Virus record (IMG/VR): IMGVR_UViG_3300037423_000701
Location: 1 to 64,000 of that record
Reading direction: 5' to 3' (one strand)
Source of the DNA: a virus
DNA: 64,000 nucleotides
The notes beneath the pieces are model-generated. The model saw only the letters and a program-made list of their open reading frames with translations. It did no database searches and was not told the origin of the DNA. Shown here one piece after another: positions 1 to 54,296 of this stretch (position 1 is its first letter; the number at the start of each line of letters is the position of its first letter). The position numbers and the translations under genes were made by a program.

Positions 1-320
1 TTTATTCATGGTGGCGCATTTCAGAGTTACTTTAGCGCTGGTGGTGGGCTCAACCGAACTCGGTTCGTGATGCTCTAATACACCCACTCTTACCTAGTCC
101 TCGGCCAGCGAAGACTCTTACTTACCCATGATGATCCCTCTATATTACCCCTAGTGATCCATTTCTGGTACCTCTTGGGTATTTGTTGTGAGCTTACTTA
201 GAAGCTCTAAAGGGATATTGGGCGGAAAGATTATTTCCCTCTTCTCTTTCCGGATAGCCGGGGTGTGTCAACCAGGAAACCCCGCACTATCGTACCCAAT
301 ATCCCTTTAGAGCCTCTATG

Positions 321-512
321 TCAAATTTCTTCCCAATTAAATCTACTCAGGGATGGATATGTCTCTTCACTACTCAAAGATATGCCGACAAAATGGTCGC
401 CAGCTATAAACCCAACCCTGACAACCTGTCCTACTTCGGGCTGTAGAAGATCATCATACCCATCAGGTTTAATGCACCTAACAAGTGTTCCTTGTTTGAG
501 ATTTTCAATCAT
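321..512 (-). CDS. hypothetical protein (63 aa)
   Basis: ORF is co-oriented with every neighbour up to 8080. Weak AAGAGA RBS. The overlapping + ORF 265..528 looks less protein-like. Confidence 0.4.
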   Translation of the reverse strand: MIENLKQGTLVRCIKPDGYDDLLQPEVGQVVRVGFIAGDHFVGISLSSEETYPSLSRFNWEEI

Positions 513-547
513 ATATTCTCTTATCTAAATAATGATGAAGTAATGCA

Positions 548-574
548 AGGGCTAGGCTACCAGAACCTAGCCCT
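548..574 (-). terminator. GC hairpin after gene 598..864 (possible terminator without U-tract)
   Basis: Perfect 9-bp inverted repeat AGGGCTAGG/CCTAGCCCT 24 nt past the stop codon. No U-run follows. Confidence 0.3.
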
Positions 575-597
575 TCGCGTTACCCCACCGCGAATTA

Positions 598-864
598 CTA
601 AGCGGCAGCCTTGTCGGTGTTGTCCTTCAGGCCCAGGTCATCGAGCAGATAGTCGATGATGGCCGAAACGTCATCGCGGTCAAGGCGAACATCCTTGCCC
701 CAGGTGGACTCAGGAAGTCCAGCCTTCTGGAGCAGCAGACGATTCATGAAGAACATCTGCTTGAACGTCGGCCCATTGCCACGCTCGGCGGCCTTTGCCT
801 GAGACTCTTCCTTGCGGCGAAGAAGCTCGGCCTCGGCCTTCTTCTCTGCGGCACTCTTGGCCAC
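598..864 (-). CDS. hypothetical protein (88 aa, charged N-terminus)
   Basis: GTG start preceded by AAGGAG at 7-nt spacing. The segment is locally GC-rich. Confidence 0.65.
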   Translation of the reverse strand: MAKSAAEKKAEAELLRRKEESQAKAAERGNGPTFKQMFFMNRLLLQKAGLPESTWGKDVRLDRDDVSAIIDYLLDDLGLKDNTDKAAA

Positions 865-963
865 TATGTTTCTCCTTATTTGCTTTGGTTGCCTACCCGG
901 TTTTTAGGTAGGTGAAAACCCCACCCATTTCTGAGTGAGGCTTTCGTCTACCTAACTATTTCT

Positions 964-1134
964 TTACCGTTTTTCCTTGTTGTTGGTATCTGGTGAAAGT
1001 TTTTCGTCCAAAGGGCGATCATTCACCAAAACATTGCAACAGGGGGCAAAGAACGTTCCGTAGCGACCTACGATAGTGACTTTGCCAAGGTCGTAGGTAC
1101 CGCCACAATGACGACAACGAACCATATTACCCAT
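964..1134 (-). CDS. small zinc-ribbon protein (56 aa)
   Basis: Internal ATG at 1134 is preceded by AGGAG. CxxC...CC motif (RCRHCGG...APCC). Overlaps the stop of the upstream gene by 8 nt. Confidence 0.55.
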   Translation of the reverse strand: MGNMVRCRHCGGTYDLGKVTIVGRYGTFFAPCCNVLVNDRPLDEKLSPDTNNKEKR

Positions 1135-1357
1135 AGGTACTCCTATAGGCTTCGATGAATTCTGCCGCTGCAATGGTGAGCCGTTCCCTCTGATCCGGGT
1201 TCAGATCAAGGTCTAGTTTTGTGGGCCGGATGATATCTCCGGCAATCCCTGGTGCCGTTGCAATCAGAGCAGGGATCGGGCAATTTGGCTCGCGCAGAAT
1301 CCTTTGAGCGTCGGCGTAATTCTTGACTCGAATTAGTGCCTCCTCAAAGAGATGCAA
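1127..1357 (-). CDS. hypothetical protein (76 aa)
   Basis: ORF with a TTG start and an AAGGGA-like RBS. Appears translationally coupled to 964..1134. Confidence 0.5.
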   Translation of the reverse strand: MHLFEEALIRVKNYADAQRILREPNCPIPALIATAPGIAGDIIRPTKLDLDLNPDQRERLTIAAAEFIEAYRSTYG

Positions 1358-1489
1358 GTTATGTTATCCCTTCTTTTTACCTTGCAATAATCTGTATTTT
1401 TTCGCCCCTTCCGACGAAACGAATCTCCGATTCTATCGGGAAAGACGAAAGATTATTGCAGATTTCTTACTCTCACCTAAAGAGAGTAA

Positions 1490-1531
1490 AAGAGAGGCTG
1501 ATTATTAAGCGGCCGATCAGCCTCTCTTTTA
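1490..1531. terminator. bidirectional rho-independent terminator
   Basis: 12-bp stem AGAGAGGCTGAT/ATCAGCCTCTCT (1491-1502 with 1516-1527), flanked by T-runs when read on either strand. Confidence 0.6.
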
Positions 1532-1537
1532 CCCTCT

Positions 1538-1615
1538 TTATTTATGAAATCCTGTTCCGTAAATGATGAGTCCGATGCACCAAAGAACGATGATGAGCCA
1601 ACCACCAACGTCCAT
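1538..1615 (-). CDS. 25-aa membrane micro-protein (MDVGGWLIIVLWCIGLIIYGTGFHK)
   Basis: Hand-translated. TAATG overlap with the stop of 1615..1800. Hydrophobic core. The terminator follows immediately. Confidence 0.35.
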   Translation of the reverse strand: MDVGGWLIIVLWCIGLIIYGTGFHK

Positions 1616-1800
1616 TAGTTCATGCTCACTATTTGCGTGTTGGCAAAGATGGTGTCTGCTGGATACAGACGACAACTAGCAGGTTTGATATAGGACACCT
1701 GAATAGTTGTCACTCGCCCCGGTGAGTCTTCGGAAACAACCGAACACTTGTAAGCCGGGGCAAGAAAGGATTTATATACCTTACCCTTACGGGGGTACAT
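1615..1800 (-). CDS. hypothetical protein (61 aa)
   Basis: ORF with an AAAGGGGA RBS-like element 6 nt upstream. Confidence 0.4.
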   Translation of the reverse strand: MYPRKGKVYKSFLAPAYKCSVVSEDSPGRVTTIQVSYIKPASCRLYPADTIFANTQIVSMN

Positions 1801-2939
1801 AACTAATCCCCTTTATGTAGAGGTTCTATGGAGATAGCGACGTGTCAGCAATCCTAGGCGTGCCTATCTATCACTATCCCCATAGAACCCCTACCCAATG
1901 GATAGGGGTTCGACCTACTTTCCACTATTCATCTATAACTACTCTCACATACCGGGATTTCTACATTGCCCCGGTTGAGGGTTTCTTTCGATTCCCTCAG
2001 TAGGAGATAGACGGAGCGGGGCTTTCAGTCAATAGCCCGCTTTCCTAGGCGTAGAACAAGGCGGGTGCTTTGCGTTTCCTCTCCCCTACGCCAGAGCGAG
2101 GAATGTTGTCACCCCTTTTGCATCAGTTCCGCTATCCCCTACTCAGGGAATCACTATGTTTGTTAGAAGATACAGCCTTTCCAACTGAACCAGTGGCAAC
2201 CGTATGTCGGCTTTTGCGCCACGAAAAGGTAAAGTTGCACTATTAGACCCCCTTCTAGAAGTCATATAGTTATTGACCCTAAACCATAGTCCCCACCATC
2301 ATATTGGGGAATGCATTTTTCGGAATGGTCTAGAGCCATTAGGAGAGAGTGGGTTGGGCTTTCATCGGTCATCACTCCGATGGTAGGATTCGAACCTACG
2401 CGATGCGCCATAAGTCTCTCTACCCACTATCCACTCTCCCCTAATCGCTCTAGGGTAAAAATGGTGGGTCCGGTACGCTAGCAGCTAGCGGTTATCCCTG
2501 TCACTCGGAATTGTCTGACCGAACCCTATGATTTTTCTCCGGCCCAATGGTGACTGACCTTACTTATACGCAACTTTGCGCCGAAAGAATAAGACTCCTA
2601 GGTCTTACTACATCACCTTATCCATAAAACCAAAGGATAACCTTTAGCGATAAGGCTTCATGCCTAGAAGTCAGAGAGAAAGAGAGAGATACCACTATTG
2701 GATCACCGGTTATGGAATGTCGGGTGTATACCCCCGATGGTCCCGGAACCTCCATTCGCCTGTTAGTTCAGGTGTTTCCACCCTCAGGTATTTTGTACGT
2801 GCGTTCGAATTGGTGAAGCCTCAAATTTCGCCTTTTATTGACGAAACCTACTAGCACGCTCTCTCTCCCTCTCTGACCCCTAGGGAGTTATGTTACTAAC
2901 TTCACCGATGGTCAGCTTTTACACTGACCATTCGTCAAG
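1801..2939 (-). ncRNA. candidate large structured non-coding RNA locus
   Basis: 1.1 kb with only one ORF of 60 aa or more (2660..2854, no RBS). Three long-range helices of 16, 12 and 19 bp have mismatches that are A-C in plus sense but G-U in minus sense. One GNRA-capped hairpin and many local hairpins. Confidence 0.45.
2341..2442 (-). pseudogene. degenerate tRNA-like element inside the structured locus
   Basis: In minus sense there is a canonical T-arm GTAGG-TTCGAAT-CCTAC (2383-2399) and a D-loop-like AGTGGGTAGAG, closed by a 12-bp helix. There is no anticodon arm. Confidence 0.4.
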
Positions 2940-3197
2940 CTAGTAAAGCCTTCTCATCCTCTCTGCGCGGATGGTGGCTTTAGCCTTATCTTCATCTGAG
3001 AATGGATAAGGCTTTCCCTTATGACGCTCCTTTAGAGCGGGTTCGGTTTTGAAAACCTCATATCGTCTCTCATCGGCGCGAGTTGGTCCGAGAACACTTC
3101 CTCTCACCAGTCGCCCAGAGAGTCCGAATGAGGGTTCCGGGATATACTTCTTCCCGCCCCTAGGAACACTGATGGTTCCGGGAATACCGGACATCAA
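2940..3197 (-). CDS. hypothetical protein (85 aa)
   Basis: ATG preceded by AAAGGAG. Confidence 0.65.
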   Translation of the reverse strand: MMSGIPGTISVPRGGKKYIPEPSFGLSGRLVRGSVLGPTRADERRYEVFKTEPALKERHKGKPYPFSDEDKAKATIRAERMRRLY

Positions 3198-3261
3198 TTC
3201 TCCTTTATGTTTGTAAGTCCTAACTACACAGATGGATAGTTCTCACTATCCATCAATCTAG

Positions 3262-3465
3262 CTAGGCCGCGATAGGTGGAAGGTAGGACGGACGGTCCCC
3301 ATTCTCGCGCCGGTAGAGCGGCACCCCGTAAAGCTTCTCGGGGTCGCTCAACTCTGCAATGGTGGCAGAGGGGAAGATCCTCCCATGCTCCAGGTAAGGT
3401 TTCTTCCTAGCGGGAATCTTGGCCGGGGGAACGTAGGCCGTTCCGTCCGTCAGAATGAGTGGCAT
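3262..3465 (-). CDS. hypothetical protein (67 aa)
   Basis: ATG preceded by GGGAGG. Confidence 0.65.
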   Translation of the reverse strand: MPLILTDGTAYVPPAKIPARKKPYLEHGRIFPSATIAELSDPEKLYGVPLYRRENGDRPSYLPPIAA

Positions 3466-3483
3466 TGAAGCCTCCCGTATGTT

Positions 3484-3549
3484 GGGGTTTCTGTCTTGCC
3501 CTAGCCTTATCGGCAGATGACAGATTCTCCGTCATTTGCAGGGGTTTCT
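3484..3549 (-). repeat. promoter-like repeat cassette, copy A
   Basis: GGGGTTTCTGTCTTGCCCTAGCCTTATCGGCAG-N-CCGTCATTTGCA, followed by a restart GGGGTTTCT. It matches the copies at 4409-4520. Confidence 0.6.
3506..3535 (-). promoter_or_regulatory. putative promoter for 3262..3465
   Basis: In minus sense ATGACG-N18-GATAAG. The same architecture recurs at 4409-4438 and at 23185-23212 (TTGACA-N16-GATAAG). Confidence 0.4.
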
Positions 3550-3560
3550 AGGGCACGCCT

Positions 3561-3579
3561 AAAACCCTCCCCCGGAGGG
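3561..3579 (-). terminator. small hairpin plus U-run after 3598..4239
   Basis: In minus sense CCCTCC-GGG-GGAGGG is followed by TTTT. Confidence 0.4.
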
Positions 3580-3597
3580 AAGGGTCTTAGGACTGTC

Positions 3598-4239
3598 CTA
3601 GTTGAAGATCACTCGCCGCATACCGGATACGGTGCGGAACTCCTCCGCCCGATCCTGTCGCGCTGGGCGAGCGTTCGGGGGTGTCGGCACGGGACCGAAC
3701 TTGGCACGGAGCAGCTTCATCATCGTCAGCGCGTGGCGCTTCAGACGATCATTGCCGCTTGCATCGGCGTGGGCCATCACCTGCCGAGTGGCAAGGTAGT
3801 GGTCTTGCCAGTTCTCGACCGAGGCGTTGCGGGCCGCGTCAAGGACTTCCGTGTGCCATTGCTTACCACGCGGAGCGCGGTCGGGCTTTGACACCGGCGG
3901 TCGCTTGGCCACCGTTGCCGTCCGCTTTTGCGGTCGGGCCGGACCCATGCGCCGGACGCGAAATCCGTCCCGCACATCGGTCACCGGGGCATCGGCAAGG
4001 ACCACATGCAGCGATCCCCTCCGCGCCACGATCCGAGACTTACCAACGTGAGTTGGCGTGTCGTCGGCCAGCGTTTCGACCCTGTGCGCGGCCATCGCCC
4101 GGAGGGTACGGGGGTCAACATCGAAGGTCGAATGACCCTCCAGCAACTCCCGCCCACGCTCTGCCGCTTCAAGGGTAGCCCTAAGGGCATCCCGCTTATC
4201 GGCAGGGGCATCGGCCACACGCTCGTCAATCGAACGCAT
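3598..4239 (-). CDS. hypothetical protein (213 aa), Arg/Ala-rich, high-GC codon usage
   Basis: ATG preceded by AAAGGAG. It is the longest ORF in the island. No motif recognised. Confidence 0.7.
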   Translation of the reverse strand: MRSIDERVADAPADKRDALRATLEAAERGRELLEGHSTFDVDPRTLRAMAAHRVETLADDTPTHVGKSRIVARRGSLHVVLADAPVTDVRDGFRVRRMGPARPQKRTATVAKRPPVSKPDRAPRGKQWHTEVLDAARNASVENWQDHYLATRQVMAHADASGNDRLKRHALTMMKLLRAKFGPVPTPPNARPARQDRAEEFRTVSGMRRVIFN

Positions 4240-4408
4240 AATCGGCTCTCCTTTAGCTCTGACAGGGGCAGTGACTAGCTACCCCTGTCTAGGGGTTCAG
4301 GGATTCATCCTGTCCGCTCGGACTAGCGAGACAGTGAGCGCGGCTAGGGGGTCAACCCTAGATCGTCCGGCGCAGGTGGCCCCTGTCACTTCCGGGGCCT
4401 GCACTGGG

Positions 4409-4438
4409 CTTATCGGCAGGCCCGTATTTTCCCGTCAT
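4409..4438 (-). promoter_or_regulatory. putative promoter for 3598..4239
   Basis: In minus sense ATGACG-N18-GATAAG, about 170 nt upstream of the start codon. Confidence 0.4.
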
Positions 4439-4520
4439 TTGCAGGGGTTTTCTGTCCTTGACCTAGCCTCATCTGCGCCGCACCGGAAAGTAGTTTTATG
4501 TCCATTTGCAGGGACTTTGC
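4409..4520 (-). repeat. promoter-like repeat cassette, copies B1 and B2
   Basis: CTTATCGGCAGG-N-CCGTCATTTGCA, then a 67-nt unit GGGGTTTTCTGTCCTTGACCTAGCCTCATCTGCG...TGTCCATTTGCA, then a restart GGGACTTTGC. Confidence 0.6.
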
Positions 4521-4537
4521 TTAGGTACTCCGCCCTT

Positions 4538-4558
4538 GACAGACTCCGGTAGTCTGTC
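4538..4558. promoter_or_regulatory. perfect palindrome overlapping a TTGACA hexamer
   Basis: GACAGACT-CCGGT-AGTCTGTC, with TTGACA at 4536-4541, 52 nt upstream of the 4610 start. No convincing -10 element. Confidence 0.35.
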
Positions 4559-4609
4559 CCTGCCAGCAACCACACCCGGCCGGGACAGACCGGCCAGAGA
4601 GGAACCACC

Positions 4610-4936
4610 ATGAGCGCCAGCACCTACCCGACCAGTCGCACTGCCGGACTCCGGCGCGGCACCACCCCCGGCACCACCCCATGCGCTGCCTGCCGCGACG
4701 GAAGGGGACTTCACTCGTGCGAGGACTTCCCACTGTCCCGCTGGACAGAGTCCTACCTGTGCCACTTCGACGCTCACCTGGGCGTCACCGCCGCGCCTCG
4801 CTTTCACCGGTCCCCCGACGGGACCCTGTACGGCACGGATGAGCCGCTGTCGGCACTGCCCATGATCCGGCCGAGCACACTGGCCGAGCGCTCTGCCGCC
4901 GCCCGCCGACTGGCTGCCTGGGGGTGGGGCCGGTGA
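4610..4936 (+). CDS. hypothetical protein (108 aa), high-GC
   Basis: ATG preceded by AGAGGA. Divergent from 3598..4239. The competing minus ORF 4496..4972 has no RBS. Confidence 0.55.
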   Translation: MSASTYPTSRTAGLRRGTTPGTTPCAACRDGRGLHSCEDFPLSRWTESYLCHFDAHLGVTAAPRFHRSPDGTLYGTDEPLSALPMIRPSTLAERSAAARRLAAWGWGR

Positions 4937-5055
4937 CGTCTCCGTTTCTCGCTCTCGCCGCTGTCCTGTCACCGGTAATCCTTGCCGTACTCCCGGCAGT
5001 ATTACTGTTAGGGAATAAGGGTGAACCGCTGTGGCGTAAGCGAGATAATCAGTAA
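4933..5055 (+). CDS. 40-aa membrane micro-protein
   Basis: Hand-translated (VTSPFLALAAVLSPVILAVLPAVLLLGNKGEPLWRKRDNQ). GTGA overlap with the upstream stop. Confidence 0.4.
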   Translation: MTSPFLALAAVLSPVILAVLPAVLLLGNKGEPLWRKRDNQ

Positions 5056-19765: not shown

Positions 19766-19768
19766 AAA

Positions 19769-19844
19769 TGCCCGGTGTAGGCATCGAACCTACGACCTCC
19801 CGCGTGTAAGGCGGGCGCTCTCCGCCCATCTGAGCTAACCGGGC
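19769..19844 (-). tRNA. tRNA-Val (anticodon TAC)
   Basis: Hand-folded cloverleaf: acceptor GCCCGGT/ACCGGGC, anticodon arm CCCGC-CTTACAC-GCGGG, T-arm GTAGG-TTCGATG-CCTAC. No encoded CCA. Confidence 0.85.
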
Positions 19845-19942
19845 AATGATTCTGTTTTCAAGGTACCGGCGTTATATATTGGGGGTAGGCGGATGCCAGC
19901 CATTTATTCCCCTGTTTATGTTAGGAAAATACCTACCCCCAG

Positions 19943-20014
19943 AGCGCCTAGTCGGGTTCGAACCGACGAACCAAGTTTGGAAGGCTTGTATGTTGCCAAC
20001 TACATCATAGGCGC
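19943..20014 (-). tRNA. tRNA-Gly (anticodon TCC)
   Basis: Acceptor GCGCCTA/TAGGCGC, anticodon loop CTTCCAA, T-arm GTCGG-TTCGAAC-CCGAC, discriminator U. One 31-39 mismatch. Confidence 0.8.
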
Positions 20015-20104
20015 AAATAATTGGGCACTAGATAAAGGTATACTATCCGCTAATTCCCTGGTTAACGGCTCTTATCTAACACCACTTCCCTCAGGGCCGG
20101 GCAA

Positions 20105-20177
20105 AGCCGTCATAGGGACTCGAACCCTAAACCTTCTGATTACAAAACAGATGCTCTACCAATTGAGCTATGACGGC
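20105..20177 (-). tRNA. tRNA-Thr (anticodon TGT)
   Basis: Acceptor GCCGTCA/TGACGGC, D-arm GCTC-AATTGGTA-GAGC, anticodon loop TTTGTAA, T-arm TAGGG-TTCGAGT-CCCTA. Confidence 0.85.
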
Positions 20178-20627: not shown

Positions 20628-21941
20628 CTAATCCTTATACGGATCGAAGGTGTCAGAGCCAGCCATTGCTACCCCAATGGGGAATAGCGTGTGCGTGACC
20701 GCGATTGTTCTATTGTGATACATCAGCACGTCGTTCAGGCGCTTATAGGCGGCGGGAGCTTCATCGGCAGCGCCACCCTTCAGCACGATCCTCTCTTCGC
20801 GGAGGCGTTCGAGCGTGGCCGCCCAATCGACTTCGCCGCCCTTTCGGAGTCTAATCTTCCGAGGCCGTGCGCCGGGGTGGTCGGGACACATCCCCTTGCC
20901 CGGCGTCGTATTGGCCTGCGCCACGGGAATCTCATATTCGCAATCCCTGTTTCCGCACTGCCAGACCTTCTTCCACTTCCCCGCAGCCTTGGTGCGTGAT
21001 AGCACTCTGCCTGCGCCATGTACAGTTGAGTTGAGAAGGTACTGCGCCTCATCGTTCTCAACGCCTTCCACGATAACTGAAGGCTCGCCCATCGTGGAGC
21101 CGATGAAGCCCTCCTGCCCGGGAAAGGCTGGCGTGCAGCCCTTGCGCACGACCCACAGTTCCTCACCCTGATGTGTTTCTTTCCAGGCAAAGTTGTGGTG
21201 GTTGTGAACTTCGTAGTCTGTTTCTGCGCCGAGGATTTCACAGACTTTGTTCACGACCATATCCCTACCGGCATAGGCATACTCTCCAGCCAGTGTCATG
21301 GCCTGTATATAGGCTTCCCCTAGGCCGCTGTCGATCCGGAAGAGGACCGGCGGTGAGTCCATTTCACCTTCAGATCCTTGGTCCTCGAATGTCTTGCCTT
21401 GCGAGAGCGCGAGGAAGCCTGTCGCCGTCTTGTGCCCGAACCCTCGGGAGCCGAAGTGGACTCCGATCCAAACCTTATCTTCTTCATCCCTGAATAGGTC
21501 TACGTAGTGGTTTCCCGATCCCACCGTGCCAAGTTGTTTGACGGCTAGATCGTATAGCTGCCTTTGCGGTGCGAATTCGGCATTCTTGATCTTGTCGAAT
21601 ACTTCGTGATCCGCCGGTTCATTGTTTTTACGACCGACGCCAAAAGAAATCCGTGCAAAGATTTCATCCATAATCTTTGGCACGTTATTTTTTATCTCAG
21701 AATATTTAATATTGGTACGAACTGCCTTATTCCCGCAGGCAATGTCGTATCCGACCCCGGATGGGGAAATGTAGTCCCGGTAGCCGATCACCCCGCCGAT
21801 GGGCTGTGAGTAGCCGACGTGACCATCAGCGCAGATCGCGGCCAGGGGCGCGTCACCGGCCAGCGCGCACCGCTCTAGCTGCTCGATGGCGCGTGGGTCT
21901 ATATCCCCATACACGGTGATTACGGGCACGGCGTTGGTCAT
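20628..21941 (-). CDS. rtcB: RtcB-family RNA 3'-phosphate ligase
   Basis: CADGHVGYSQPIGGV, GYDIACGN, GSGNHYVDLF, HFGSRGFGH and HNHHNFAW motifs. 437 aa. Confidence 0.9.
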   Translation of the reverse strand: MTNAVPVITVYGDIDPRAIEQLERCALAGDAPLAAICADGHVGYSQPIGGVIGYRDYISPSGVGYDIACGNKAVRTNIKYSEIKNNVPKIMDEIFARISFGVGRKNNEPADHEVFDKIKNAEFAPQRQLYDLAVKQLGTVGSGNHYVDLFRDEEDKVWIGVHFGSRGFGHKTATGFLALSQGKTFEDQGSEGEMDSPPVLFRIDSGLGEAYIQAMTLAGEYAYAGRDMVVNKVCEILGAETDYEVHNHHNFAWKETHQGEELWVVRKGCTPAFPGQEGFIGSTMGEPSVIVEGVENDEAQYLLNSTVHGAGRVLSRTKAAGKWKKVWQCGNRDCEYEIPVAQANTTPGKGMCPDHPGARPRKIRLRKGGEVDWAATLERLREERIVLKGGAADEAPAAYKRLNDVLMYHNRTIAVTHTLFPIGVAMAGSDTFDPYKD

Positions 21942-22168: not shown

Positions 22169-22170
22169 AA

Positions 22171-22242
22171 CTCGGGGACTAGGAATCGAACCCAGATTAC
22201 AAGGACCAAAACCTTGCGTCTTACCGATTAGACGATCCCCGA
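22171..22242 (-). tRNA. tRNA-Gln (anticodon TTG)
   Basis: Acceptor TCGGGGA/TCCCCGA (U1-A72), anticodon arm CAAGG-TTTTGGT-CCTTG, T-arm CTGGG-TTCGATT-CCTAG. Confidence 0.85.
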
Positions 22243-22246
22243 ATAG

Positions 22247-22447
22247 TTATAGGGATAGTTCTTTTAGATTCTTAAATGCCTTTAGCATAGAATCGTCTTC
22301 AATATAAAATGGATCACAATCATCCTGAAATCCATTAACTTCTCTTACTGCATTAGCTATAAGCTGGCCTAATCTCCAATCGGTATTTAGCTCCCACAGA
22401 GATTGCAGCTCTTTAATAACTTCTGGAATTCTGCTTGGATCTCTCAT
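22247..22447 (-). CDS. hypothetical protein (66 aa)
   Basis: ORF wedged between two tRNA genes. Confidence 0.55.
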   Translation of the reverse strand: MRDPSRIPEVIKELQSLWELNTDWRLGQLIANAVREVNGFQDDCDPFYIEDDSMLKAFKNLKELSL

Positions 22448-22449
22448 AG

Positions 22450-22522
22450 TACGCCCGGTAGGGGTCGAACCTACAACCTACCGCTCATAAGACGGCCGCT
22501 CTAACCATTGAGCTACGGGCGC
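22450..22522 (-). tRNA. tRNA-Ile (anticodon TAT)
   Basis: Acceptor GCGCCCG/CGGGCGT (G1-U72), anticodon arm GCCGT-CTTATGA-GCGGT, T-arm GTAGG-TTCGACC-CCTAC. Confidence 0.7.
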
Positions 22523-45275: not shown

Positions 45276-45542
45276 ATGCATGAAATTTACGAAGCCAACC
45301 AGGGACCTAATCCTCTTCCTAACGGGAGTTGGGGGAGTGCTACACGAAACGTTAAGGACTTCAGCGGAGCGTCCAACGCTTTTGATTCTGTACGCATCCA
45401 TGATGGGACTACCAGTGTTTCTTTCGAGAGACAAAGACAAGGACGACGAATAATGGGAGTCGTTAAGCAATATCCTTGGTCGTGTTCATGGATGATATTT
45501 TGTGTTTTGCTAGCCCTAATAAATAAGTTGGTGGCTCTATGA
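45276..45542 (+). CDS. hypothetical protein with C-terminal TM segment
   Basis: ATG at 45276. ATGA coupling to the collagen-like gene. Confidence 0.5.
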
Positions 45543-45994
45543 AATTTGTAAAAACATACATGAGTCAGCGTTTACCTCTTATCACTTATCTATGTCTCAC
45601 ATTTATAGCTATGGCTATCACTCACTTCTATGAAGTTAAGGAGAGAGTCAAGATTGAACACCGCGTAACAAATATCGAGCGCGTGGTGAAGGGCGTACCC
45701 GGCCACAACGGTCTACGTGGTCCTGCTGGTCCTATGGGTCCTGCGGGACCTGTTGGTCCCCGTGGCCGACGCGGGGAGCGAGGCGCACCCGGTAAGGATG
45801 GCTCGCGCGGTGCTACCGGTCCCCGTGGCCCACAAGGACTACGAGGATTACGAGGACCCAGCGGGCCATCCGGGCAACGTGGCCCAATAGGACCCATCGG
45901 GCCGCAGGGACCACCGGGGTTGGTTGAGAATCCCGGTAACGGACCTCCCAACATTCCTCCCCCGCCGAAGCTTCCGGGTAAACCAAAAAATTAA
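45539..45994 (+). CDS. membrane-anchored collagen-like protein
   Basis: N-terminal TM segment ([19 protein letters not shown]) followed by 25 uninterrupted G-X-Y triplets (45692-45919). Confidence 0.7.
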
Positions 45995-53115: not shown

Positions 53116-53898
53116 ATGGCTTTACAAGGTTTTGAAGCAGTACGACGGGCATCCCAGGAGATTACTGAGCGTAAGAATTCTGGTGGTTCTTTCGGACCCC
53201 GTGAATTGTGGCCCAATCTGCGTAATTCGGGCGACACCATCCAGGTTCGTTTCTTGGAGCAGGGCGAGGATGTGAAGGTGGCCTGGGTTCATGAATATAA
53301 GAAGCCCAATGTTAATAAGTCTTTCTTCACACCTTGCTTGGATCAATCCGACGAGGGAAATCCTTGCCCCGGGTGTGAGCTTGGTATCAAGCGTAAGTTC
53401 CAGGGGTACATCAACGTTATTCAGCGCAACTCACCGCAGCTAAAGCGCGGCGAGGACGGACGCGCCGTCAAGAATGAGACGGGCCAGTATGTCGTTGAAT
53501 CGTATAAGGATGAGATCGGAGTTTGGGTACAGGGAATCACCGTATTTGAGGATTTGGCCGATAAGGATATTACTTATCGTGGTCTTACCACTCGTGATTT
53601 TAAAATCACTCGGCGTGGATCTGGCCTGAACACCAAGTACGTGATCGAACCGGCTGTCGATGAAGATGGTAACGCTAACGCTACCCCTCTGACAGCAGAC
53701 GATCAGGAACTCATCAAGGAAAAGTACGATCTGGACAAGGAATATCTAACGCCGCTTAGCTACGAGCAGATGAACGCTCTGTTCGCCAAGGGTGAGATTC
53801 CCTCGGGCGGTGGCGTCAAGCCGGAAGATGTGCAGCCTACTTCTCCGTTCGCCAGAGGCGACGGGGAGAGCCGCGCTAACCGATTCTTGGAGGGTTGA
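53116..53898 (+). CDS. gp32-like ssDNA-binding protein candidate
   Basis: H-x15-C-x9-C-x2-C (HEYKK...TPCLDQSDEGNPCPGC) resembles the T4 gp32 zinc site. Sits between primase and polymerase. Confidence 0.45.
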   Translation: MALQGFEAVRRASQEITERKNSGGSFGPRELWPNLRNSGDTIQVRFLEQGEDVKVAWVHEYKKPNVNKSFFTPCLDQSDEGNPCPGCELGIKRKFQGYINVIQRNSPQLKRGEDGRAVKNETGQYVVESYKDEIGVWVQGITVFEDLADKDITYRGLTTRDFKITRRGSGLNTKYVIEPAVDEDGNANATPLTADDQELIKEKYDLDKEYLTPLSYEQMNALFAKGEIPSGGGVKPEDVQPTSPFARGDGESRANRFLEG

Positions 53899-54296
53899 TG
53901 GGTACTATTGACAGTAGTCCTAATTTGAAGATTTCTGAGTTTGTAACAAAGGATGAGTTTGTAACAAAGGACTCAGGCGAGCGGGAAGAGTTTTCCACTG
54001 GTGCTCGCAGGGATATTCAGACAGGTAAGCCGCGTTATGACCTGATTCCTTCCCGTGCCCTGAAGCGTGTAGCTGGACTATACGCTCGGGGCGCGGAGAA
54101 GTATGGCGAGTCCAATTGGCAGAAGGGTATTCCATTTTCCCGCTGTCTCTCTTCATTGGAGCGGCATCTACATCAGTTCAAGATGGGCGAGATTGACGAG
54201 GATCATCTTGCCGCTGTGGCCTGGAATGCCTTGGCCATTATGCACTTTCAGGAGACTGATCGTAAGGATTTAAACGATATGGAAGGTAAATATTAA
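53895..54296 (+). CDS. dATP/dGTP pyrophosphohydrolase-like protein candidate
   Basis: GKPRYDLIP...GAEKYGESNWQKG pattern, as I remember it from phage dNTP diphosphohydrolase N-terminal domains. Confidence 0.4.
   Translation: MMGTIDSSPNLKISEFVTKDEFVTKDSGEREEFSTGARRDIQTGKPRYDLIPSRALKRVAGLYARGAEKYGESNWQKGIPFSRCLSSLERHLHQFKMGEIDEDHLAAVAWNALAIMHFQETDRKDLNDMEGKY

Follow-up and report, generated by a model that had tools for sequence, protein, structure and literature searches.

The 1,139 nucleotides (nt) at positions 1801-2939 of the phage sequence IMGVR_UViG_3300037423_000701 consist of five separate modules, each closed by its own long stem, and not of one fold. The window referred to below is the whole stretch analysed, positions 1 to 64,000 of that record, and the sense of the RNA is the minus strand of the window throughout. 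In this sense the modules follow one another as Eb (2946-2893), Ec (2884-2663), Ed (2453-2330), Ee (2152-1990) and Ef (1901-1810). Three linkers lie between modules, two of them unstructured, and no long-range pairing is found from one module to another. That the locus is built of separate modules, is read in the minus sense and does not represent one giant RNA is, taken as a whole, highly probable. The locus is best regarded as a variant of the phage early-mRNA processing hairpins and transfer RNA (tRNA)-like small RNAs; it belongs to no Rfam family and is seen in two genomes.

The features of the locus and its borders are the following. Energies are minimum free energies in kcal/mol, and z-scores compare the folding energy of a module with that of dinucleotide shuffles.

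2940..3194, minus strand: gene for an 84-amino-acid (aa) product, a real gene, which bounds the locus upstream in RNA sense
2893..2946, minus strand: Eb, a simple 23-bp hairpin whose base takes in the stop codon of the 84-aa gene; -30.3 on the minus strand versus -20.7 on the plus strand, z -8.1
2663..2884, minus strand: Ec, a 222-nt module with a 26-bp GA-rich/CU-rich closing stem and a multi-branched interior; -94.5 minus versus -79.9 plus, z -6.2
2456..2660, minus strand: linker of 205 nt with moderate local structure, z -3.1 on the minus and -0.8 on the plus strand
2330..2453, minus strand: Ed, the tRNA-derived module; -64.1, z -7.3
2290..2310, minus strand: small conserved hairpin UCCCCA-AUAUGAUGG-UGGGGA in the linker after Ed
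2163..2240, minus strand: micro-open reading frame (micro-ORF) of 25 codons, read 2240->2163, with a GTG start and AGAAGGGGG 8-9 nt upstream, in the Ed-Ee linker
1990..2152, minus strand: Ee, a 163-nt module with a stem of at least 21 bp, three interior hairpins and a conserved single-stranded CCUAGGAAAGCG; -78.1 minus versus -70.6 plus, z -6.3
1952..1974, minus strand: hairpin CCGGGGC-AAUGUAGAAAU-CCCGG just after Ee, in a segment with 36 of 38 nt identical to positions 4455-4492 of the related contig L008 described below
1810..1901, minus strand: Ef, a 92-nt module with a 31-bp closing stem; -49.6 minus versus -33.1 plus (1805-1905), z -7.2
1615..1800, minus strand: 61-aa ORF of doubtful coding status, which bounds the locus downstream

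An initial annotation of the same sequence proposed a large structured RNA, recalling the giant ornate RNAs GOLLD and ROOL or perhaps of a new class, with three long-range helices. These helices exist, as the cores of longer inverted repeats that form stems of 23-31 bp: 1810-1840 with 1871-1901 (31 nt, 81% complementary), 2330-2352 with 2431-2453 (23 nt, 91% complementary) and 2663-2688 with 2859-2884 (26 nt, 85% complementary). Each of them, however, closes a module of its own, and a fourth long helix, 1990-2010 with 2132-2152 (21 nt, 90% complementary), had been missed. Two of the dense local hairpins listed at the same time, 1888-1908 and 1976-1999, overlap arms of the long stems and are thus alternative pairings. 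The hairpin GGGUG-GAAA-CACCU with its GNRA loop is present inside Ec, at 2770-2783 in the minus sense.

The sense of the RNA follows from the wobble pairs and from the folding energies. The four non-Watson-Crick positions of the three helices (1832/1879, 2344/2439, 2679/2868 and 2680/2867) are A-C on the plus strand and G-U on the minus strand, just as had been reported. When the ten long stems of 1-3300 are taken together, 209 pairs are of the Watson-Crick type, 18 are G-U in the minus sense, 4 are G-U in the plus sense and 12 are other mismatches. By our own arithmetic the excess of 18 versus 4 corresponds to a two-sided binomial p of ~0.004. In Ec all four stem mismatches are G-U pairs in the minus sense, and Ef has four G-U pairs in the minus sense and none in the plus sense. 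By minimum free energy all modules fold more stably on the minus strand, and their z-scores range from -4.8 to -9.0. The energies and the G-U counts together bear out the proposal of a structured transcript in the sense of the flanking genes. Module-wise z-scores are used here in place of fixed 150-nt sliding windows, which cut through the long stems and so understate the structure. Positions 3500-64000 contain no inverted repeats of similar quality, and the enrichment is therefore real. The helices and their assignment to the minus strand are real and far beyond chance.

Elements of the same kind are also present outside the locus. They form an array of ~13 elements that runs for ~3.6 kb from ~3601 past window position 1, and the 1,139-nt locus is the most gene-poor part of this array. 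The elements follow or separate the small genes of a leftward operon, and each is closed by a near-perfect stem of ~20-31 bp. They are not copies of one another, and a self-blastn comparison of 10 kb of the operon gave one weak pair only. There is no ORF of at least 100 aa anywhere in 1-3516. In all six frames of 1801-2939 a single ORF of at least 60 aa is found, at 2660..2854 (plus strand, 64 aa), as the initial annotation stated. Its description of the locus as ORF-free is not strictly correct, since a conserved 25-codon ORF with a Shine-Dalgarno sequence is present at 2240->2163. The ORFs that start after the GA-rich arms inside the modules are not conserved in the relative and were rejected as genes.

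Pairing and rearrangement in a second phage

The only relative found is L008, a 4.5-kb Logan contig. It carries the single homologue of the 213-aa neighbouring protein (57% identity), as well as a counterpart of the 84-aa product (L008 2778-3032, 46.5% aa identity, tblastn E 5e-20); the 84-aa product of the window belongs to no Pfam or PHROG family. In L008 the 84-aa gene is followed downstream by five modules with closing stems of 19-32 bp, all of them more stable in gene sense, and the stems equivalent to the outer stem of Ed measure 26-31 bp. In both phages, hairpins begin at or beside the stop codons of the 213-, 67- and 84-aa genes. The homology between L008 and the window is patchy (63-95%), and several linker segments are 80-95% conserved.

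The comparison of paired positions is as follows; Ea is a hairpin of the array that lies upstream of the locus.

Ea versus L008: 20 pairs, 1 compensatory, 2 one-sided, 0 broken
Eb versus L008: 19 pairs, 2 compensatory, 2 one-sided, 0 broken
Ed core versus L008 module d: 17 pairs, 3 compensatory, 0 one-sided, 0 broken
Ee versus L008 module e: 36 pairs, 7 compensatory, 6 one-sided, 0 broken

Altogether, 13 of the 92 aligned pairs have changed on both sides with pairing retained, 10 have changed on one side and none is broken. These compensatory substitutions in one relative support the stems and show the modules to be under selection for pairing. The interior of Ec aligns only weakly with L008 modules a and c, although the stems are kept. 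The L008 contig ends before Ef could be compared.

The modules of L008 are, in addition, combined differently. Module d of L008 has a stem that matches the Ee stem of the window and an interior that matches that of Ed. The interior of its module e matches the Ee interior in a different stem, and the stem of its module a resembles that of Ed. A 71-aa ORF is present in L008 where the window has none. The order of the modules and the combinations of stem and interior thus differ between the two sequences, and between the two known phages the modules are exchanged as whole units. Such reordering would not be tolerated by a single RNA that folds as one body. The stems are the most persistent feature; the Ed core and the Ee interior are conserved, and the Ec interior drifts quickly.

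The 3' arm of Ee (CUGAGGGAAUC) can alternatively pair, within 1976-2003 on the minus strand, with a downstream ACCCUCA, and the same UGAGGG...CCCUCA pairing is also possible in L008 (4426-4461, plus strand). This shared alternative may represent refolding after processing.

The linkers are of different kinds. The one at 2456..2660 has no counterpart recognised in L008. Those at 2155-2327 (173 nt, z -0.6) and 1904-1987 (84 nt, z -0.1) are unstructured in comparison with shuffles. The part of the second linker at 2273-2327 is 80-86% identical to L008 3795-3849, and the stem of its small hairpin at 2290..2310 shows one compensatory change, from C-G to A-U. The same linker contains the micro-ORF, whose product is VQLYLFVAQKPTYGCHWFSWKGCIF. 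Its counterpart at L008 3998-4084 (plus strand) reads MQLQLFWPTYHHKPIHGCWWYSWSGCIF and differs by an in-frame indel of three codons (tblastn E 3.7e-10). This is the only stop-free conserved frame there. Trp, Cys and aromatic residues are frequent in the micropeptide (25-28 codons; ...GC.W.SW.GCIF), and its frame ends 8-9 nt before the next long stem. Judging by this conservation, 2240->2163 is probably a real micropeptide gene.

The 61-aa ORF at the downstream border is strongly structured (z -5.8 for 1615-1800 and -9.0 for the window 1651-1800). It is annotated as a gene in JGI records and not in one Logan record (L002; L015), and a comparison with 1.84 billion representative proteins gives no homologue. 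Instead of a gene it may be non-coding RNA, in which case the non-coding stretch would reach ~1358.

All other contigs that carry the locus are essentially identical to the window (one mismatch, in L006) and show no population variation. No relative of the RNA region was found by blastn against GenBank phages and PLSDB plasmids, nor in IMG/VR with the proteins and three DNA motifs. When the 213-aa and 84-aa neighbours and a two-sequence profile served as protein queries, L008 was the only relative to emerge. A structure-tolerant motif, run against JGI/ENA metagenome contigs and GTDB genomes, returned in each case only an ordinary Treponema tRNA-Gln, a false positive.

The resemblance to GOLLD and ROOL lies in the occurrence of these RNAs in phages and prophages, often near tRNAs, and in their being non-coding over hundreds of nucleotides. 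The locus differs from them in having neither a covariance-model match nor a single global fold, and in consisting of modular, shuffled units with a micro-ORF inside. A search of Rfam 15 with cmscan at the gathering score returns only the five tRNAs of the window and likewise no known family in L008. At E<=10 over 1400-3400 there are only sub-threshold matches to hairpins of the microRNA type, and none to GOLLD, ROOL, any other large RNA or the tRNA model; nor does Rfam give a match at E<=10 to group I or II introns, self-cleaving ribozymes, Y RNA or YrlA.

The tRNA-derived module

The initial annotation had pointed to an embedded tRNA-like module, and its T-arm is indeed present at 2383-2399, within Ed. 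The outer stem of Ed, P1, consists of 23 bp (2431-2453 with 2330-2352) and is followed by an AUAG/AC internal loop and by P2 (UGGGU/GCCCA, 2422-2426 with 2355-2359). A 13-nt joining strand then leads to a 3-bp mini-hairpin at 2400-2408 and to a canonical T-arm, GUAGG-UUCGAAU-CCUAC (2399-2383, minus strand). The T-arm abuts in sequence an acceptor-like hairpin of 6 bp with an 8-nt loop, CAUCGG-AGUGAUGA-CCGAUG (2382-2363), after which AAA precedes the return to P2.

A strict T-arm pattern, applied to the window, to L008 and to contig L013, which extends past window position 1, matches the seven true tRNAs of the phage and the Ed element only. Ed can also be aligned to the tRNA-Ile(UAU) of the phage, with which it shares the D-loop (UGGGUAGAG), an anticodon-loop remnant CUUAUG and an identical T-stem. 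From the T-arm pattern and this alignment it is concluded that Ed is derived from a tRNA. In module d of L008 two pairs of the T-stem (GCUGG/CCAGC) and one of P2 (GAG/CUC) are compensatory. The T-loop is unchanged, the acceptor-like hairpin differs by one loop base (G to U), and an unrelated hairpin of 55 nt stands at the 'anticodon' position. The conserved unit of Ed is thus the 'top half' of a tRNA, in which the acceptor is closed by a loop and the ends exit via a D-stem-like helix.

Ed is not a tRNA in the ordinary sense. ARAGORN finds neither a tRNA nor a transfer-messenger RNA (tmRNA) in it with default settings, with introns allowed or with a lowered threshold, and its calls in mitochondrial mode were dismissed as noise. 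There is no match to RF00005 or to tmRNA models at E<=10, and there is no anticodon arm. Ed lacks CCA and the G3:U70 pair, and CAUCGG/CCGAUG is without G-U at position 3. A search of 108 kb with a covariance model built from the two copies of Ed brings up no other copy. The sequence GUGAUGA...GAAA in the acceptor-like loop was considered as a hammerhead or a box C/D element, and this was rejected, as the helices are misplaced and the G is not conserved in L008.

Two known RNAs have a comparable architecture. The YrlA-type Y RNAs of bacteria and phages combine a long terminal stem with a tRNA-like domain, and the stem motif GNCGAAN0-1G binds Ro60 (Chen et al. 2014, PMC4201824). Ed likewise has a long stem formed by its 5' and 3' ends, the 23-bp P1, that carries a tRNA-like domain with a canonical T-arm followed by a loop-closed 'acceptor', and it too occurs in a phage and is possibly tRNA-derived. 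The order in Ed is a V-like mini-hairpin, the T-arm and the closed acceptor hairpin, followed only by AAA and the P2 strand, with no D-arm hairpin. The ends of Ed leave by the D-stem-like helix, whereas those of YrlA leave by the anticodon stem. Searched as a regular expression, GNCGAAN0-1G occurs at 2936, 2760 and 948 only, which is about the chance frequency; it is absent from the Ed stem, and the site at 2936 is not conserved in L008. The second comparable RNA is the two-piece, circularly permuted tmRNA, in which a T-arm, the 3' strand of the acceptor, an intervening loop and the 5' strand of the acceptor follow one another and a long helix joins the distal ends. Ed differs from it in having no CCA, no G3:U70, no tag reading frame and no pseudoknots, and ARAGORN, which detects permuted tmRNA, is negative.

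It might accordingly be asked whether Ed, perhaps together with Ee, is the real product of the locus, a Y-RNA-like or tRNA-mimicking small RNA that tethers or decoys a protein, with the other hairpins being incidental. Ro60/Rsr, RNase P, tRNA modification enzymes and tRNA-targeting defence nucleases would be candidate partners, and the idea overlaps with the explanation favoured below. The T-loop UUCGAAU and the acceptor-like hairpin are near-invariant, though the neighbouring proteins are just 46-57% identical, and the compensatory pairs in the T-stem and P2, the parallel to YrlA and the investment of the phage in tRNA biology, with seven tRNAs and an RtcB ligase, point in the same direction. 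On the other side, no TROVE/Ro60 gene is found in a scan of the 48 larger ORFs or in the Pfam annotation precomputed for called genes, which cover ~84 of the ~100 kb of the genome, and a copy in the host is possible. Moreover, the YrlA motif is missing from the Ed stem, no D-arm hairpin stands at the position it has in YrlA, Rfam gives no Y RNA or YrlA match, and the anticodon-side region is not conserved. We regard this explanation as rather doubtful.

A more far-reaching proposal is that Ed and its L008 counterpart might constitute a new class of phage small RNA, a 'top-half' mimic derived from tRNA-Ile, with a loop-closed acceptor stem and with ends that pass through the D-stem into a stem of at least 23 bp. 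It would be cut from the early transcript and would occupy or redirect a factor that recognises tRNAs, for instance RNase P, a modification enzyme or an anti-phage nuclease directed at tRNAs. Ee and other modules would then be further undescribed early small RNAs, exchanged as hairpin-bounded cassettes. This proposal is tentative, and it is unlikely to hold in full.

Proposed processing stems and other explanations

By analogy with known phage transcripts, we lean towards the explanation that the array belongs to the early transcript and that its stems, which would be processing or stability elements of the RNase III type, also release small RNAs. The participation of RNase III, taken by itself and on the same analogy, is about evenly balanced, with a slight inclination to doubt.

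It is then possible to envisage the following sequence of events. The stretch would be co-transcribed in a long early transcript that starts near a divergent gene for a cI-like repressor. The long stems would act as double-stranded RNA processing or stability elements, as in the T7 early region. Their cleavage would separate the mRNAs of the small genes and leave protective hairpins at the 3' ends. Folded interiors enclosed by a stem would be cut out by such cleavage as small stable RNAs, for example Ed or Ee. More than 1 kb of untranslated RNA would also be protected by its dense pairing against Rho and single-strand nucleases. The excised Ed would consist of the T-arm stacked on the acceptor-like hairpin, with its ends passing via the D-stem-like helix into the long stem, and could engage RNase P, TruB, the CCA-adding enzyme or tRNA-directed defence nucleases.

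RNase III is suggested because of the length of the stems, their intercistronic placement, the lack of U-tracts and the T7-like arrangement. The natural substrates of bacterial RNase III have stems of about two helical turns, and stems of 21-31 bp are in this range. Dunn and Studier are said to have described the T7 early-region RNase III sites R0.3-R1.3. The elements of the window resemble these sites and those in the early mRNAs of SP82 and SPO1 in being intercistronic in an early operon of small genes, in having stems of at least two helical turns without U-tracts, in following nearly every gene and in keeping their pairing while the sequence drifts. They are intercistronic stems of ~20 bp or more in gene sense, and none of the long stems is followed by a terminator-like U-tract; σ70-like promoters occur at chance frequency. 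The locus differs from the T7 sites in that its stems are longer and nearly perfect, whereas the T7 sites have an internal loop. Furthermore, several modules enclose folded interiors of 80-170 nt, and five of them stand nearly back-to-back with almost no coding sequence, unlike the T7 sites.

Several points weigh against the processing explanation. The role of RNase III is assigned purely by analogy. Stems that are longer and more perfect than those of T7, several of them enclosing 80-170 nt, are more than a simple processing signal needs. The covariation comes from two sequences per helix, that of the window and that of one relative. The interiors of Ec and its counterparts in L008 diverge fast, and some interiors may have no function of their own. 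The G-U asymmetry also fits hairpins of minus-strand single-stranded DNA. Finally, the 5' arms of the stems are mostly purine-rich (0.52-0.81 in nine of the ten stems of 1-3300), often with UAGGGG or GGGAGAG, the 3' arms are pyrimidine-rich, and in 14 of the 18 wobble pairs the G is on the 5' arm; this bias and the placement of the wobble G are without explanation. A sponge for CsrA was considered and rejected, the GGA motifs being mainly within stems.

Hairpins of single-stranded DNA, which tolerate G-T wobble as well, would be expected if the elements were mobile or recombining cassettes bounded by hairpins, comparable to miniature inverted-repeat transposable elements (MITEs), Correia elements or attC sites, with RNA folding as a by-product. 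Correia-type elements are MITE-like and are cleaved by RNase III in Neisseria. The recombination of stems and interiors between the two phages, the 71-aa gene present in L008 only, the size of the elements (50-230 bp with inverted ends of 20-31 bp) and the CTAG or TTAG found at many stem bases all agree with such cassettes. The Correia and ERIC types are also elements of 50-230 nt with long terminal inverted repeats that are co-transcribed with their neighbours and form hairpins affecting mRNA processing. They differ from the present elements in that these have no shared family sequence, no multiple copies and no demonstrable target duplications: no common terminal sequence exists, and no repeats are found in 10 kb of the operon, in GenBank phages or in PLSDB plasmids. 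CTAG as a recognition or target site was rejected, as it is not enriched (25 observed versus 22.8 under the Markov expectation). The attC core pattern RYYYAAC...GTTRRRY is not recognised either, the 3' arms ending in GUUAGGA, GUUAGUA or CUUCUAG with no consistent GTTRRRY, and no transposase, integrase or IntI is present among the ORFs scanned. The strand asymmetry agrees with the direction of transcription, and the T-loop is conserved as an RNA motif. An origin of the pattern at the level of DNA is consequently judged improbable.

Decay is a further explanation to be weighed. Ed could be a tRNA pseudogene, the rest could be remnants of lost genes, and the hairpins could be ordinary terminators or stabilisers that yield no product RNA. 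The resemblance of Ed to a degraded tRNA-Ile(UAU), the poor conservation of the Ec interior, a GC content of ~47% versus 60-70% in the neighbouring genes and the 61-aa ORF without a homologue would fit this. Compensatory changes, however, maintain the T-stem, P2 and all the long stems, and the Ee interior is conserved with seven compensatory pairs. A pseudogene would not keep the 3' strand of its acceptor paired to a new downstream partner in both phages, and the stems are without the U-tracts of terminators. Decay is therefore very improbable.

Least probable of all is one structured RNA of ~1.1 kb, a distant GOLLD/ROOL member or a new class with the modules as its domains: it is true that no strong promoter or terminator separates the closely spaced structured elements, that the phage has tRNA genes and that several linker segments are well conserved, but large-RNA models do not match, the modules do not pair with one another and are reordered in L008, two linkers are unstructured and one of these encodes a conserved peptide with a ribosome-binding site, and the same elements flank ordinary small genes outside the locus.

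If the processing explanation is true, this phage lineage packs structured RNAs unusually densely into its host-takeover operon. It would also possess a tRNA mimic of a topology not catalogued in Rfam, adding to the few known tRNA-like non-coding RNAs of phages, and would make the swapping of RNA modules between phages, at the boundaries of hairpins, amenable to study. More generally, 'ORF-free, helix-rich' gaps in the early regions of phages can be arrays of processing hairpins, small RNAs and micro-ORFs, and not giant RNAs. With two sequences as support, the case has the level of a good lead.

The phage and its early operon

The elements of the array outside the locus are listed below.

3547..3601, minus strand: long hairpin directly after the stop codon of the 213-aa gene (3598-4239), the first element of the array; the minus-strand fold of 3460-3605 has z -5.78, and L008 has a hairpin at the equivalent place (2351-2400)
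3219..3266, minus strand: Ea, a simple 22-bp hairpin between the 67-aa and 84-aa genes; -29.9 kcal/mol minus versus -19.3 plus, z -7.1
1478-1540 and 1383-1460, minus strand: Eg and Eh, long-stem elements with z -9.0 and -4.8, respectively
904..955, minus strand: Ei, a 24-bp hairpin between small genes; -32.8 minus versus -21.8 plus, z -7.4
196..321, minus strand: Ej, a 126-nt module with a 27-bp closing stem, z -9.0
130..153, minus strand: 5' arm of Ek, whose 3' arm lies beyond the window start (L001 14260-14283); the 24-nt arms are 88% complementary and 149 nt apart

The genes of the window are those of a phage. They encode the major capsid protein, a 2,237-aa tape measure protein, Dit and other tail proteins, DnaE, DnaB, primase, RecA, a class II ribonucleotide reductase and the RtcB ligase, and there are five tRNAs. 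The proteins are at most ~48% identical to anything in GenBank phages, and the virus is a novel siphovirus of ~100 kb. Its sequence recurs on several JGI and Logan metagenome contigs, the longest of which has 99,923 nt. By our own calculation from the coordinates the ends of this contig overlap by 127 nt, and the genome is therefore circular or terminally redundant, with a length of ~99.8 kb.

The locus lies inside a leftward, minus-strand operon that begins beside a divergent cI-like helix-turn-helix gene and comprises ~35 mostly tiny genes, two further tRNAs (Glu and Lys) and JAB/ThiF-like genes. The GC content shifts within the operon, from 60-72% in the upstream genes at 3600-5000 to ~45-50% in the hairpin array (~47% in the locus). 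The tRNA-Glu(UUC) and tRNA-Lys(UUU), at L013 12782-12856 and 13109-13181 (plus strand), are ~3.6 kb past window position 1, downstream of the hairpin array, and bring the total of the phage to seven tRNAs, five in the window and two beyond its position 1. The early operon is thus a mixture of small genes, structured RNAs and tRNAs. At its distal end there are Prok-JAB and ThiF/E1-like genes (L013 16635-17780 and 18063-18776, plus strand). The pairing of JAB with ThiF/E1 is reminiscent of the phage ubiquitin-like conjugation and deconjugation systems used against CBASS-type defence.

Contigs L014, L015 and L016 represent strain variants that differ from L013 in the small ORFs just downstream of a 63-aa gene, beyond window position 1. 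Several assemblies break near L001 position 17,570, and this part of the early operon seems to be variable or to contain repeats.

The gene for the RtcB RNA ligase (20628-21941, minus strand, Pfam E 1.4e-65) lies within the cluster of five tRNAs (tRNAs at 19768-20177 and 22170-22522). Its position amid tRNA genes suggests a module for tRNA repair or counter-defence. The product of 53895-54296 (plus strand) matches PF18909, the N-terminal domain of dATP/dGTP diphosphohydrolase (MazZ-like), with E 2.3e-23; MazZ-like diphosphohydrolases are linked with phages that substitute 2-aminoadenine for adenine. After the tail genes, 45539-45994 (plus strand) encodes a 151-aa protein with collagen triple-helix repeats (E 8.6e-15), which is probably a component of a tail fibre.

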